Assembly (NCBI GenBank): GCA_913063225.1
Contig: CAJXYP010000019.1
Location: 1,178-65,177 of the forward strand
DNA length: 64,000 nt
Source: an uncultured Cellvibrionales bacterium
Lineage (GTDB): Bacteria > Pseudomonadota > Gammaproteobacteria > Pseudomonadales > GM7GCV1
Direction of reading: 5' to 3'
The notes below the pieces were generated by a model. The model made no database searches. It was not told where the DNA came from and worked only from the letters and a program-made list of their open reading frames with translations. Below are positions 7,910-37,984 of the stretch, in pieces. Position numbers and translations under genes: made by a program. The stretch's first letter is position 1. The number at the start of each line of letters is the position of its first letter.

Positions 7910-8009
7910 GTTGGTTCCTTTTATTCAATTAAGAACATTTTCAAAAGAACCGGTTGCAGTGCTATAGGGGGTAAAGGACGAGCTGGTCAGATATTCGCAG
8001 CTTGATATT

Positions 8010-8106
8010 CCTATTCCTACGCCGGTGCTAACCGGATCAGGTTCAAAGGGTTTATCAGCTCTGCTGAATTCTCAGGCTTCGATATTGTCGAAGCCACCCC
8101 TCAGGA
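8010..8106 (-). promoter_or_regulatory. TPP (THI-box) riboswitch
   Basis: The minus strand reads GGGGUGGC..CUGAGA..ACCCUUUGAACCUGAUCCGGUUAGCACCGGCGUAGGAA, matching the conserved THI-box core. Downstream, GGTTCTTTT can pair with AAAAGGAACC across the Shine-Dalgarno of the receptor gene. Confidence 0.9.
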
Positions 8107-8150
8107 TTGTCTTCCAAAACTGCGACTGACAGTGGAAGATGCGGGGGATT

Positions 8151-23989: not shown

Positions 23990-24073
23990 AGCTATCTCCT
24001 CAGAGGAATAGTAAATAAATTCAGGGCGACACAAATAGGCCACACCGTCGCATCAGACAGTGGTTACCAATTT

Positions 24074-24217
24074 GTTCTCTTTCATCCGGACTTTAACCGT
24101 CGGTTTCGGAATCTAACCGAATCTGCTGACCTCTTTGGCATAGAAACCAAAAGAGCGCTCGCGGACTTAAGCAAAAGCTCTTACCGCCGGTGGGGAATTA
24201 CACCCCGCCCCGAGAAC
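24074..24217 (-). promoter_or_regulatory. FMN riboswitch (RFN element)
   Basis: The minus strand reads GUUCUCGGGGCGGGGUGUAAUUCCCCACCGGCGGUAAGAGC...GUCCGCGAGCG...GGUCAGCAGAUUCGGUUAGAUUCCGAAACCGACGGUUAAAGUCCGGAUGAAAGAGAAC, the canonical RFN core with a closing P1 helix. Confidence 0.9.
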
Positions 24218-24340
24218 AGGCGGCATCTTACTGCGCAGTATGAGAAGTGTCTATCGGGAGGGGCGCAAAGATAACTAGATCGTCGGCTTGCCTATTGTAT
24301 TCAACAAAGCACCTTCAACAAGGTGTTTCAAAAAAGTTCC

Positions 24341-34467: not shown

Positions 34468-34558
34468 TATAACGCTTTGCTAAGCGGAAATTAATGGTTG
34501 GCTAAAATCGCGTAGCGATGGCCAAATGTTAATTTTCCGTTTAAGCAACTTGTTATAT
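34468..34558 (-). repeat. attC-like imperfect palindrome (copy A)
   Basis: The minus strand reads ATATAACAAGTTGCTTAAACGGAAAATTAACATTTGGCCATCGCTACGCGATTTTAGCCAACCATTAATTTCCGCTTAGCAAAGCGTTATA. The ends TATAAC/GTTATA pair with each other. It overlaps the stop codon of the methyltransferase gene. Confidence 0.65.
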
Positions 34559-35143
34559 ATATTTTGTAGCAATGACCTGAACAACTGAGGCCTTACCCGT
34601 ATGATATATACCCTCAACCACATTACGTTCAAGCTCTTCGATATGATTAAAATTCAATTCTTTAAACTCATCCATCAAAGATATTTTAGATTGCATAAAC
34701 TCTACCGTATTTCCACCACCAGTGCTAAACATTAACTGCTCAGGAGTATAGGCTTCGAGCAAAAATACCCCCTTTTTCTTTAGTCCGTTAATTACTTTTT
34801 TATGTAACGTTTTCCTCTGCAATGACGACAGAGGGAAAAATATAGATATTATTCCATCCCACTGATTCAGCCCTAGATTATATTCAACTAAGTCTGCATG
34901 AATAAATTTAACTTCAACACCGTTACTCTTTGCTAATTTCATCCCTTTATCTATACCTGCTAAAGATGAATCTATAGCAGTTACAGAGTACCCCTGCTTT
35001 GCTAGGAACACCGCATTTCTACCTTCACCTTCTGCTAAGCTTAAAACCTTTCCTTTTGGAATAAAGTTAAAATTATTTTTTAAAAATTTGTTAGGTTCTG
35101 TTCCATAAACATACTCGTCTGTGCTGTAACGTTTATCCCACAT
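34553..35143 (-). CDS. class I SAM-dependent methyltransferase (TehB-like)
   Basis: VLSLAEGEGRNAVFLAKQGYSVTAIDSS is SAM motif I; 196 aa. Confidence 0.85.
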   Translation of the reverse strand: MWDKRYSTDEYVYGTEPNKFLKNNFNFIPKGKVLSLAEGEGRNAVFLAKQGYSVTAIDSSLAGIDKGMKLAKSNGVEVKFIHADLVEYNLGLNQWDGIISIFFPLSSLQRKTLHKKVINGLKKKGVFLLEAYTPEQLMFSTGGGNTVEFMQSKISLMDEFKELNFNHIEELERNVVEGIYHTGKASVVQVIATKYI

Positions 35144-35183: not shown

Positions 35184-35214
35184 TATGTTACAACCTAAAG
35201 TCAACTTGAGGTCA
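35184..35214 (-). promoter_or_regulatory. MerR-type promoter/operator for the methyltransferase gene
   Basis: The minus strand reads TTGACC TCAAGTTGACTTTAGGTTG TAACAT. The spacer is 19 bp and contains the palindrome ACCTCAAGT-TG-ACTTTAGGT. Confidence 0.6.
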
Positions 35215-35226
35215 ATAGATGAATTT

Positions 35227-35631
35227 ATGGATATAGGTCAAGTTTCAAAGATTTGTAAATTACCAGTTTCAACATTAAGATTCTATGAAGAAAAAGGACT
35301 CATTCAGTCAATTGGCCGTAAGGGTTTAAGACGATATTTTTCTAAAAATGTGGTTGATACTCTTAACCTAATTTCATTAGGGCGCAATGTAGGGTTATCG
35401 TTAGATGAGATAGGAAAAATGCTACTTCCTCAAGGCCTTCAAATTGATAGGAACTTACTTCTATCTAAAGCAAATGAATTAGATATAAAAATTATGGAAA
35501 TGACAGCAATGAGAGATGGGCTTCGCCATGCCTCCGCTTGCAAAGCACCTTCTCATATGGAATGTCCGAAATTCCTTCGCTTGCTAAATGTTGCAGGCAA
35601 AAGATGGGGCAGGCCTAAGAAGAAGCTATAG
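35227..35631 (+). CDS. MerR-family transcriptional regulator
   Basis: MDIGQVSKICKLPVSTLRFYEEKGLI HTH. The C-terminal region has two Cys residues (CKAPSHMEC). The listed ORF starts at 35185, but the ATG at 35227 fits MerR N-termini better. Confidence 0.85.
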   Translation: MDIGQVSKICKLPVSTLRFYEEKGLIQSIGRKGLRRYFSKNVVDTLNLISLGRNVGLSLDEIGKMLLPQGLQIDRNLLLSKANELDIKIMEMTAMRDGLRHASACKAPSHMECPKFLRLLNVAGKRWGRPKKKL

Positions 35632-36152: not shown

Positions 36153-36301
36153 TTGAATTTTTGTTGAATTAAATTTTCCTGATTTAGCCATAATGAGATT
36201 GATAATGGATTATCAGGTTCCTGACCAAAACGGATTTTATTGCGGATAAGGCTCAAGTCAGGATTATTTTTGTAACTATATTGTTTATCCACGTCCTTCA
36301 T
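36146..36301 (-). CDS. possible 51-aa ORF overlapping the sodX 3' end
   Basis: MKDVDKQYSYKNNPDLSLIRNKIRFGQEPDNPLSISLWLNQENLIQQKFNI. No recognisable motif. It could be non-coding. Confidence 0.25.
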   Translation of the reverse strand: MKDVDKQYSYKNNPDLSLIRNKIRFGQEPDNPLSISLWLNQENLIQQKFNI

Positions 36302-36611
36302 TAGTGCACCACCTCGTCGATCGTGACACCTGCCCAACAACCCGACCTAAGACTTGCGCAGGTTGGATACTACCCAAAGTCAAAGTGTCGGTTGAAGCGG
36401 CAAGATTATCGCCCACTAATAATAGGGTGCCACCGTTTTCTATTGTGATGATTCGTTTAATTATCTTTCCATACTGAGCATGTTCGACCACCACCACATC
36501 GCCTTGTTTAAAGACTGAATGGAGTCGTCGATATGCTATTACAAAATCACTGCAGCAGAAGCTAGGCTGCATGCTATCTCCGGCGACTTTATAACAGCCA
36601 AGCCTAATCAT
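36285..36611 (-). CDS. sodX: S26-family peptidase, NiSOD maturation protease SodX-like
   Basis: GDSMQP (catalytic Ser), GDVVVV, IKRI (Lys) and the GDN box. It lies immediately downstream of sodN. Confidence 0.75.
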   Translation of the reverse strand: MIRLGCYKVAGDSMQPSFCCSDFVIAYRRLHSVFKQGDVVVVEHAQYGKIIKRIITIENGGTLLLVGDNLAASTDTLTLGSIQPAQVLGRVVGQVSRSTRWCTNEGRG

Positions 36612-36650: not shown

Positions 36651-37151
36651 TTATTTAAGCTTTGGATAAACAATCATTTCTGCAGGAAGGTAAGGGCTTG
36701 TTGCTGTATACGTTGCAACTTTTTTAGTGCTCCAATAAGCCGCCGCGAATTCATTCACCAAGGCTAATAATTTTTCACCTTTCTCGCGCTCAAGCCCTTG
36801 CTTACACGCAGAACCAGCCAGCATGATGTCGTGTACTAGTGTATGAATATTAGGAAACTGATCAAGCTGAGGCTGTTTAAAATAATCACCCCAGATAATT
36901 CTAATTTCATGCTTAACTTTTTCTGCATGCACTTCTTTCTCAGCCACTAATCGACCTAACTTGGCCTGGTCAGCCAGTGACAGTGTTTCTGTGCTCGCTA
37001 ACTCGTTGATCAAGTCCATAAAGCGAACAGTGCTTAATGTTGCTATTTGTGCCGTAATTGGATCGTAAACTTTACAAGGAATATCACAATGAGCGGAAGC
37101 CGTGTCTATACCTACCAACTTATCGTACAAGCTAATTAGATTGTGCAACAT
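36651..37151 (-). CDS. sodN: nickel superoxide dismutase precursor
   Basis: A pro-peptide followed by the Ni-hook HCDIPCKVYDP. WGDYFKQPQLDQFPNIHTLV parallels Streptomyces SodN WSDYFKPPHFESYPELHTLV. Confidence 0.92.
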   Translation of the reverse strand: MLHNLISLYDKLVGIDTASAHCDIPCKVYDPITAQIATLSTVRFMDLINELASTETLSLADQAKLGRLVAEKEVHAEKVKHEIRIIWGDYFKQPQLDQFPNIHTLVHDIMLAGSACKQGLEREKGEKLLALVNEFAAAYWSTKKVATYTATSPYLPAEMIVYPKLK

Positions 37152-37154
37152 AAT

Positions 37155-37367
37155 TTATTTTTCCTTATTTACAGTTTTAATATTTTTTGATTTGCGTAAA
37201 TAGAACCAGATTCCGGTCCCAATAGCGTAAGCCAATGCCGCTAAAAGAAAAGAATGAACCGCAGGGCTTGCCCAGTGTCCGTGGTCATGGCCTGAATGTG
37301 CTGCTACGAAACTTGCAGGTGTTATCAGCGCTACCGCTAGAGGGAGAGATTTTTTAAATGACATCAT
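37155..37367 (-). CDS. 70-aa membrane protein with a His-rich segment (HSGHDHGHWASPAVH)
   Basis: Hydrophobic N-terminus, His cluster, a second TM segment and a basic tail. Its start overlaps the upstream stop (TAATG), and its stop is 3 nt from the sodN ATG. Confidence 0.65.
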   Translation of the reverse strand: MMSFKKSLPLAVALITPASFVAAHSGHDHGHWASPAVHSFLLAALAYAIGTGIWFYLRKSKNIKTVNKEK

Positions 37368-37810
37368 TATGCAGTGTCCTTAGAAAGATGAAGTATAGGT
37401 TGGAATTCCAACTCGAAAAAAACATTAATGACCTTTTCTTCATGCGCGCTAAAAATGCCTAAGCGTTTAACGTTCGCAGCCAATTCAGTGCCTGCACGTC
37501 GGCTTGCACCGTGAAATGCACTGGTGATGTTAGACGTACCCACATTAATTAAATAATAAGATTTTAACTGCTGATAAAGGTCTTGGTAGGTATTAATAGC
37601 CTGTGAATTATTGTGCTTTCTAAAATGCACATTCGCGATATTTTGATAGCTAATAACCAACGCAACAATTGCTGCTTCAGTATCATCCCAATGAGGCAGC
37701 AACAGGCGTGCGCGCTGGCAAGCCGTTGTATAATGCCGTATCGCGACACCGTCTTGACCTTCGTTAAAGGCTGTATTGCCTTGCAATATCTCTTTTTTCC
37801 ATTGCTCCAT
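37367..37810 (-). CDS. hypothetical 147-aa helical protein, first gene of the NiSOD operon
   Basis: GGGAG Shine-Dalgarno before the ATG at 37810. Translationally coupled to the next gene. I cannot assign a family. Confidence 0.7.
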   Translation of the reverse strand: MEQWKKEILQGNTAFNEGQDGVAIRHYTTACQRARLLLPHWDDTEAAIVALVISYQNIANVHFRKHNNSQAINTYQDLYQQLKSYYLINVGTSNITSAFHGASRRAGTELAANVKRLGIFSAHEEKVINVFFELEFQPILHLSKDTA

Positions 37811-37830: not shown

Positions 37831-37876
37831 CTGAATGATAATGATAATGATAATGATAATGATAATCATTATCATT
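37831..37876. promoter_or_regulatory. extended Fur-box array: five tandem GATAAT hexamers plus an inverted CATTATC
   Basis: 37837-37866 is (GATAAT) x 5. 37855-37873 is GATAATGATAATCATTATC, identical to the 19-bp Fur consensus. It overlaps candidate -10 hexamers (TATCAT on the minus strand) 27-66 nt upstream of the operon ATG. Confidence 0.8.
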
Positions 37877-37984
37877 CGTGGTTGTCTATGGATAATTAGT
37901 TTTTTTGAGCAATTTTGGAGGAAAACACGTAAAAATAAATTTAGATTCAAAATAAATCCACCAAATGGCTAAATTTTAGTGAGT

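Follow-up and report, generated by a model that had tools for sequence, protein, structure and literature searches.

How does a nickel superoxide dismutase (NiSOD) obtain its metal? Urease and hydrogenase are served by well-studied nickel chaperones; for the supply and maturation of NiSOD, the known factors are, to our knowledge, limited to the SodX protease and, in cyanobacteria, to SodT, a permease encoded nearby. The question is raised by a 64,000-nucleotide stretch of contig CAJXYP010000019.1 (assembly GCA_913063225.1, an uncultured Cellvibrionales bacterium; hereafter the window), in which two small open reading frames (ORFs), encoding products of 147 and 70 aa, stand directly in front of sodN, the NiSOD gene. 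A preliminary description of this DNA had proposed that the 70-aa product is a membrane-tethered, His-rich element for nickel capture or hand-off, and that the 147-aa product is an accessory or assembly factor. It had also remarked that no dedicated NiSOD metallochaperone is known, which agrees with the literature that we searched on NiSOD accessory factors, where no dedicated nickel-delivery factor turned up. We find that the region is a Fur-box-fronted four-gene operon of the iron-sparing, iron-starvation type, whose genes run head to tail in the order 147-aa gene (for a tetratricopeptide repeat (TPR)-like protein), 70-aa gene (for a peptide with a His cluster), sodN, and sodX; that the His peptide goes with the NiSOD version of the operon; and that, of the candidates available for a nickel-supply factor of NiSOD, this peptide is the best (coordinates are collected in Table 1).

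The association between the peptide and sodN was followed from both sides. Patterns made from the peptide alone and run against species genomes returned 50 loci, from Marinomonas, Alteromonas, Psychromonas, Enterovibrio, Veronia, Methylophaga, Endozoicomonas, Oceanobacter, Ferrimonas, Hahella, Cellvibrionales, and one member of the Methylophilaceae; in 47 of these 50 peptide-bearing genomes sodN lies directly downstream on the same strand, and most of them also have sodX. The reciprocal scan, anchored on the nickel hook of sodN, gave 80 metagenomic loci, 74 of which have enough upstream sequence, and the peptide gene is directly upstream of sodN in 62 of the 74. The preliminary description had staked its proposal on phylogenetic co-occurrence with sodN, and co-occurrence is what both scans show. 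When 735 neighbouring ORFs from the 50 loci were clustered, the only recurring families were sodN, sodX, and the TPR gene, with no transporter among them; a cluster of “ABC ATPase” neighbours was rejected as a conserved transporter, since it mixed unrelated genes at scattered positions. The closest relative of the window's operon in the genome collection (79-92% protein identity) is on contig JBLHVV010000027.1 (locus L009), labelled as a Crocinitomicaceae (Bacteroidota) metagenome-assembled genome (MAG); all other relatives are from Proteobacteria, and the contig may be mis-binned.

The genes are also tightly packed. The start ATG of the 70-aa gene and the stop TAA of the 147-aa gene have base 37367 in common (TAATG, a 1-base overlap), and between the 70-aa stop (37157-37155) and the sodN ATG at 37151 there is a 3-nt spacer (37154-37152), which is the coupling that had been reported from the letters of the window. 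Relatives keep this close spacing: of 46 loci, 45 have ≤30 nt between the peptide stop and the sodN ATG and 34 have ≤6 nt, with a median gap of 2 nt. With gaps this short, the sodN ribosome-binding site must lie inside the tail codons of the peptide gene; in the window, the Shine-Dalgarno-like AAGGAAAA of sodN sits within these codons. Such spacing is what would be expected if the main role of the peptide gene were exerted in cis, as an upstream ORF targeted by Sec or the signal recognition particle that recruits the mRNA to the membrane and couples the translation of sodN to its own. We regard a main role of this kind as very unlikely, since it cannot explain an invariant five-residue His/Trp pattern that is kept across several orders while the rest of the peptide drifts.

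Both small ORFs are real genes, not chance ORFs. About 50 species genomes and about 60 metagenomic loci preserve both of them, uninterrupted and with their order unchanged; the codon-position bias between close homologues is modest, and the ORFs are taken as coding because they are conserved across genera. No known RNA or riboswitch was found near the operon.

The 70-aa product reads, segment by segment, MMSFKKSLPLAVALITPASFVAA, HSGHDHGHWASPAVH, SFLLAALAYAIGTGIWFY, and LRKSKNIKTVNKEK, and its hydrophobic N-terminus, His cluster, second transmembrane (TM) helix, and basic tail are exactly as first described. Members of the family share a layout of signal peptide, A-x-A/H-x-G-H-D-H-x-H-W-x5-H (the slash marks the predicted cleavage site), a single TM helix, and a basic tail; the consensus of the segment that follows the signal peptide and precedes the TM helix can be written A-x-A/H-[PSA]-G-H-D-H-[GS]-H-W-x-[SA]-x3-H. 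In an alignment of 40 diverse members (A4), five residues only are invariant (H24, H27, H29, W32, and H38), and A23 (position -1), G26, D28, and H31 are at least 90% conserved; the signal peptide, TM helix, and basic tail of these 40 relatives are conserved in physical character and not in individual residues. Distant metagenomic variants have lost H31 and W32 and keep H-x-G-H-D-H-x7-8-H. Because the Ala at -1 is conserved and the His at +1 is invariant, we infer that cleavage exposes His as residue 1 of a 47-residue mature protein, and the predicted orientation, from the positive-inside rule, puts the His cluster on the periplasmic side. Since only the His cluster and the preceding Ala are conserved across genera, the pattern points to a metal site whose N-terminal position matters.

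A word-indexed search recovered close relatives of the peptide only (identity at least 70%), and an exhaustive profile search gave 141 cluster representatives, nearly all of 52-86 aa. The top Pfam match of the window peptide is DUF6732 (PF20506), a family of unknown function, at 16.3 bits and thus below its cut-off of 27; DUF6732 is the top Pfam match at E<0.1 for 22 of the 40 relatives as well (best E 4e-6, best listed score 25 bits), most relatives thus also staying under the cut-off. NCBI calls members “hypothetical protein”, with the Veronia homologue alone called “DUF6732 family protein”. NCBIfam gave no match for either small protein, the peptide profile found no meaningful match among PDB sequences, and no peptide homologue was found in the plasmid collection. 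In the literature searched (on DUF6732, on sodN/sodX in gammaproteobacteria, and on NiSOD accessory factors), the name DUF6732 is mentioned in no paper, and neither the peptide nor its association with sodN turned up. Two Enterovibrio norvegicus entries of 199 and 201 aa (P0177 and P0179) join the TPR-like protein to the peptide; we rejected this fusion as a frameshift artefact, because, relative to the corresponding genes in L026 and L028, the TPR part is read in the wrong frame over its C-terminal third.

The product of sodN scores 166 bits against TIGR02753 (E 6e-49; cut-off 90), which assigns it to NiSOD, and matches Pfam Sod_Ni at E 1e-46. It has a 20-aa propeptide that ends in A-S-A, followed by the nickel hook HCDIPC (37074-37091); the SodN propeptides of relatives end in small-x-A before HCD. 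Among loci L009-L058, these ends (corresponding to window positions 37092-37100) are ASA in 21 cases, AQA in 7, and VSA in 6. The A-x-A/His pattern is common to the end of the SodN propeptide and the predicted cleavage site of the His peptide, and SodX is an enzyme of the signal-peptidase family. The sodX ORF matches Peptidase_S24 and S26 at about E 7e-9, both above the Pfam cut-offs, and scores 58 bits against TIGR02754, the model of the NiSOD maturation protease, whose cut-off is 63.25; public gene calls use an alternative start, which gives a shorter protein of 95 aa. The slot directly after sodN is taken by sodX in 43 of the 50 related loci.

When would such an operon be expressed? The preliminary description had overlooked a perfect Fur box, which sets the iron-sparing context. 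The box belongs to an array directly upstream of the 147-aa gene, with six overlapping 19-mer matches (one perfect and five near-perfect) against 0.01 expected by chance; the array is unusually long, which suggests that several Fur dimers may bind. The top sigma-70-like site of the region (score 10/12) would place its -10 hexamer inside the Fur box, so that a 19-bp box overlaps the predicted promoter, as is expected of a member of the Fur regulon. A Fur-like box is found at the same position in L003, a 61%-identical operon from a different genomic context, and such boxes occupy this position in 24 of the 50 related species loci, compared to about 1 expected by chance.

Expression data from a relative are consistent with this. 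In Alteromonas macleodii ATCC 27126, RNA-seq under iron limitation showed induction of genes for a peptidase S24, a Ni SOD, and two adjacent hypothetical proteins (PMC7190382); the four genes were induced by log2 4.9-5.7 (30- to 50-fold), with similar read counts (PMC7190382, supplementary file 2), and NiSOD and fumarase C are named as iron-sparing replacements in the main text of that paper. The two hypothetical genes are most likely, by synteny, the homologues of our two small ORFs, because a metagenomic locus (L074) whose proteins are identical to the A. macleodii entries shows the same order of TPR-like gene, His peptide gene, sodN, and sodX. Co-expression of the peptide with sodN, first argued from the spacing in the window, is thus supported by the short gap conserved among relatives and by RNA-seq of genes matched by synteny.

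We then ask whether the nickel connection extends to the 147-aa protein. The preliminary description had suggested profile searches and structure prediction for both small products; profile searches leave the peptide a borderline DUF6732 protein and show the 147-aa protein as TPR-like, as does its AlphaFold2 model. The latter product is predicted to be a cytoplasmic TPR-like protein of the OrfX/DUF2753-like family. Its Pfam matches, to TPR_2 and DUF2753, are weak (for DUF2753, 17.8 bits against a curated cut-off of 28.7, over the N-terminal half only); a newer precomputed Pfam version places PF10952 on nearly all listed relatives, with no match strength given. A profile made from 21 relatives matches TPR proteins in the PDB, consensus TPR proteins included, which supports the TPR assignment. 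The AlphaFold2 model consists of six helices in three hairpins (pLDDT, the model's per-residue confidence, 82.8) with a disordered tail at 135-147, and the best Foldseek matches to it are generic 3-TPR peptide-binding modules, which are weak (template-modelling score 0.35-0.45).

Upstream of the His peptide gene, a homologue of the 147-aa ORF is present at about 37 of the 50 genome loci and at 44 of 61 sodN-anchored loci. The family also occurs without nickel: a 141-aa homologue in Aeromonas caviae comes after a Fur-like box and before sodA (which Pfam assigns to the Fe/Mn-type SODs), so close to sodA that no peptide gene would fit, and hhalign of the family alignment (A3) against this sodA-linked protein (probability 99%, E 2.5e-18) demonstrates the homology. 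In Pseudomonas, orfX encodes a DUF2753 protein within the Fur-regulated fagA-fumC-orfX-sodA operon, together with a manganese SOD, and the Fur regulon of Vibrio parahaemolyticus includes a DUF2753 gene. When the plasmid collection was queried with the TPR-like protein, the one useful match was a mislabelled Aeromonas chromosome. Since a clear homologue precedes sodA in Aeromonas, the TPR-like protein is a general component of such SOD operons, not a nickel-specific one, and the proposal that it is a nickel-specific accessory does not hold. That it is nevertheless a dedicated NiSOD assembly factor might be argued from its place as first gene of the operon, its translational coupling, and its presence upstream in about 72% of sodN loci; we consider this improbable, given the homologues that accompany manganese or Fe/Mn-type SODs (Pseudomonas, Aeromonas) or belong to the Vibrio Fur regulon, the four sodN loci that have the TPR gene without the peptide and others that have neither, and a fold that is a generic three-hairpin TPR module. 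We also observed that 28 of 37 upstream TPR-like proteins (L010-L057 and L059) have a C-terminal His with a hydrophobic residue two positions before it, the sodA-linked Aeromonas protein (...HQLH) among them; in the window protein the aligned residue is H141 (about 37388-37390), followed by six extra residues.

For the peptide itself, we tentatively favour a reading to which we give slightly less than an even chance: that it is a periplasm-facing, membrane-tethered Ni(II) site, made from a Fur-released operon, which captures nickel for NiSOD. Under iron starvation, Fur would release the promoter and the nickel SOD would replace the iron SOD. The peptide would be exported by Sec and cut after A-x-A, so that the mature protein begins with His, and its H-x-G-H-D-H-x-H-W-x5-H cluster would be exposed at the inner membrane, on the periplasmic side, with one TM helix as its anchor; translational coupling would keep the amount of peptide roughly equal to that of SodN. 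Several imidazoles of the cluster, together with the free amine of the N-terminus, would bind Ni(II) (coordination by such an amine is found repeatedly in Ni(II)-specific sites, such as those of NikM, HypA, NmtR, RcnR, and NiSOD). Scarce seawater nickel would then be concentrated at the membrane and passed to an importer encoded elsewhere, and nickel would thereby be secured for the abundant new enzyme. A role in Ni(II) capture is suggested by the specificity of the peptide for sodN operons and the exact retention of a His at the cleavage site, by the cyanobacterial sodT gene beside sodN-sodX together with a weak resemblance to the N-terminus of HupE/UreJ, and by a possible HupE-like ORF in the same slot of one peptide-less locus. 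Of the two roles named in the preliminary description, capture (or uptake) fits better, and direct hand-off to NiSOD seems topologically unlikely, because the His cluster is predicted to be periplasmic and NiSOD has no export signal. In its boldest form, the proposal makes the peptide the first dedicated NiSOD nickel-supply factor, either an antenna for Ni(II) that is anchored in the membrane, faces the periplasm, and is made in stoichiometric amounts, or a HupE-like uptake module of minimal size, with a His cluster that is needed at nanomolar seawater nickel; this we hold to be possible, though rather doubtful.

Several points weigh against capture of nickel for NiSOD. Binding or transfer of nickel by the peptide is argued from the conserved N-terminal His cluster and the genomic linkage, and signal-peptide cleavage is predicted from the sequence; the His/Asp cluster could equally bind Zn(II) or Cu(II). 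The cluster is predicted to be periplasmic, and SodN and SodX have no export signals; the nickel would therefore have to cross the membrane through a transporter, and no transporter gene recurs in the neighbourhood across the 50 loci or can be recognised in the window, where no nickel-transporter motif (NiCoT, HupE, or NikM) was found. The Prochlorococcus sodN and sodX alone reportedly yield active NiSOD in E. coli given nickel, and no further factor would therefore be strictly essential. In addition, about 16% of the sodN loci of this type are without the peptide (four keep the TPR gene and about eight have neither gene), and three peptide homologues are without sodN: a copy in L014 that is convergent with an Fe/Mn-type SOD gene, a TPR-peptide pair in L050 (an Alteromonadaceae MAG) beside fur and a haem/transferrin-type TonB receptor, and an isolated copy.

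The first two of these sodN-less copies, and the promiscuity of His/Asp clusters in metal binding, would also suit a peptide that is a general periplasmic buffer or scavenger of metals (Zn, Cu, or Fe(II)) in the iron-starvation response, linked to sodN through shared Fur control and operon history. We think this unlikely: the linkage is specific to sodN, the sodA operon examined (Aeromonas) having the TPR gene without the peptide, and the adjacencies found in both scans, at gaps of a few nt, are far tighter than shared regulation requires. As to the locus itself, at L050:6823-10774 a genuine fur gene is divergent from the TPR-like gene, the TonB-dependent receptor, and a His-peptide gene that is degenerate, with Asn in place of H38.

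Could the peptide be the importer? In the genomes of marine cyanobacteria, sodN-sodX are found together with sodT, whose product, a nickel permease, is the proposed nickel supplier (PMC4284471). A membrane-protein gene is thus clustered with sodN and sodX in both systems; whereas SodT, of the UreH family, is a recognisable permease with six TM helices, the 70-aa peptide has one TM helix after removal of the signal peptide, cannot be a conventional permease, and has no sequence relationship with SodT. The N-terminal module of HupE/UreJ offers another comparison, since in both a His-containing motif and a TM helix come straight after a signal peptide. One family member matches positions 4-48 of the HupE_UreJ profile at E 0.012, below the gathering score, and such sub-threshold matches, confined to the same positions, occur in 3 of 40 relatives and not in the window peptide. 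HupE/UreJ proteins have about six TM helices and the motifs HPxxGxDH and FHGxxHGxE; with a single TM helix, the peptide lacks the other five and the HPxxGxDH signature, and does not qualify as a permease of this kind. At L126:1976-2479, a metagenomic sodN locus without the peptide, a 167-aa ORF with several TM helices stands behind a Fur-like box and directly before sodN; its top Pfam match, over the full length, is HupE_UreJ, far below threshold (E 0.066, 13 bits).

From these observations one may construct a minimal nickel importer, made up of several single-TM copies around a His-lined pore, or of a detached HupE/UreJ N-terminal module. No other transporter is conserved in the operon, the weak profile match and the possible HupE-like ORF in the same slot at L126 lie in this direction, and a real permease gene adjoins sodN in cyanobacteria. 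We nevertheless judge an importer to be an unlikely explanation, because the TM helix has no conserved residue, as a pore or a specific helix-helix interface would be expected to have, because the HupE matches are below threshold, and because transcripts equal to those of a very abundant enzyme suit a stoichiometric binder over a catalytic channel.

If the proposal is true in its boldest form, iron-starved marine gammaproteobacteria would depend on this peptide to switch from an iron SOD to a nickel SOD. The candidate is short, conserved, and genetically separable in cultivable bacteria (Alteromonas macleodii, Marinomonas, Enterovibrio), and its motif is simple enough to be synthesised (HPGHDHSHWSSPAVH) and titrated with metals. 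More broadly, the NiSOD of marine heterotrophs is tied to Fur and to the classic fumC-orfX-sodA iron-sparing operon; this tie helps to read NiSOD as a marker of iron stress in ocean metatranscriptomes, and bears on how demand for iron and demand for nickel are coupled in seawater. The widespread OrfX/DUF2753-like TPR proteins emerge as companions of non-iron SODs, whatever the metal of the SOD.

Table 1. Features of the NiSOD operon and its promoter region (positions are those of the 64-kb window).
Feature	Position	Strand	Remarks
Sigma-70-like promoter	37859..37888	minus	TAGACA, 18-nt spacer, TATCAT; consensus match only
Perfect 19-bp Fur consensus GATAATGATAATCATTATC	37855-37873		19/19 match, 0 mismatches
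Fur-box array	37837..37873		Five tandem GATAAT hexamers running into CATTATC
147-aa ORF	37810..37367	minus	First gene of the operon
70-aa ORF	37367..37155	minus	Second gene of the operon
Predicted Sec signal peptide, residues 1-23 of the 70-aa product	37299..37367	minus	KK n-region, hydrophobic core, V-A-A before the cleavage site
His cluster HSGHDHGHWASPAVH, residues 24-38	37254..37298	minus	Predicted periplasmic N-terminus of the mature protein
TM helix (residues 39-56) and basic tail (residues 57-70)	37158..37253	minus	Tail probably cytoplasmic (positive-inside rule)
sodN	37151..36651	minus	Nickel superoxide dismutase precursor; TIGR02753 and Pfam Sod_Ni matches
sodX	36611..36285	minus	Putative NiSOD maturation protease, S24/S26-type; Pfam matches
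Remnant of the ORF between sodX and fumC in related loci	36155..36301	minus	tblastn

Other features of the window include a MerR-family regulator just downstream of the operon (35185-35631, plus strand), which has a C-x7-C motif (CKAPSHMEC) near its C-terminus, as in CueR-type sensors, and, divergent from it, a gene for a TehB-like S-adenosylmethionine-dependent methyltransferase (34553-35143, minus strand). There are also two riboswitches, for flavin mononucleotide (24070-24221, minus strand, 119 bits) and for thiamine pyrophosphate (7997-8111, minus strand, 75 bits).

Short His clusters that are exported or anchored in the membrane, like that of the peptide, are known from other metal systems. 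The periplasmic Cu,Zn-SOD of Haemophilus has a His-rich N-terminal extension, and the CbtAB cobalt transporter has CbtB; both are thought to capture scarce metal on behalf of one enzyme or transporter. The Haemophilus element is fused to its enzyme and works in the same compartment, whereas the His peptide is a separate protein and lies across the membrane from its enzyme; and CbtB has its partner CbtA encoded alongside, whereas no such partner was found near the His peptide.

For the operon as a whole, the comparison is with fagA-fumC-orfX-sodA of Pseudomonas. A Fur box stands in front of both, and both have an OrfX/DUF2753-like TPR gene directly upstream of a gene for a non-iron SOD; the likeness to OrfX is established through DUF2753 (below cut-off) and the Aeromonas homologue, Pseudomonas OrfX having been compared by description only. 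In addition, a class II fumarase and a small ORF are part of the cluster at L003-L009, L012, L020, L027, and L055. The Oleiphilus locus L012, with the order small ORF, fumC, TPR gene, peptide gene, sodN, and sodX, mirrors fagA-fumC-orfX-sodA, and is the Pseudomonas layout with a peptide-sodN-sodX cassette in place of sodA. The two operons differ in their SOD, which is of the nickel type here, with the protease SodX, and of the manganese type in Pseudomonas; in the extra His-cluster peptide gene, placed here between the TPR gene and the SOD gene; and in fumC, which is lost from this window. In the window's closest relatives fumC comes after sodX with an ORF between them (intact in L003-L009), and the 89-aa ORF before fumC in related loci has no match in Pfam or NCBIfam. 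No fumC was found within the 64-kb window, and the remnant behind sodX, with 57% identity over the first 49 residues of the L009 ORF, marks the loss, in this lineage, of the distal, fumC-containing part of the ancestral operon. Overall, this is the Fur-controlled iron-sparing operon fumC-orfX-sodA in a nickel form, plus one uncharacterised conserved component.

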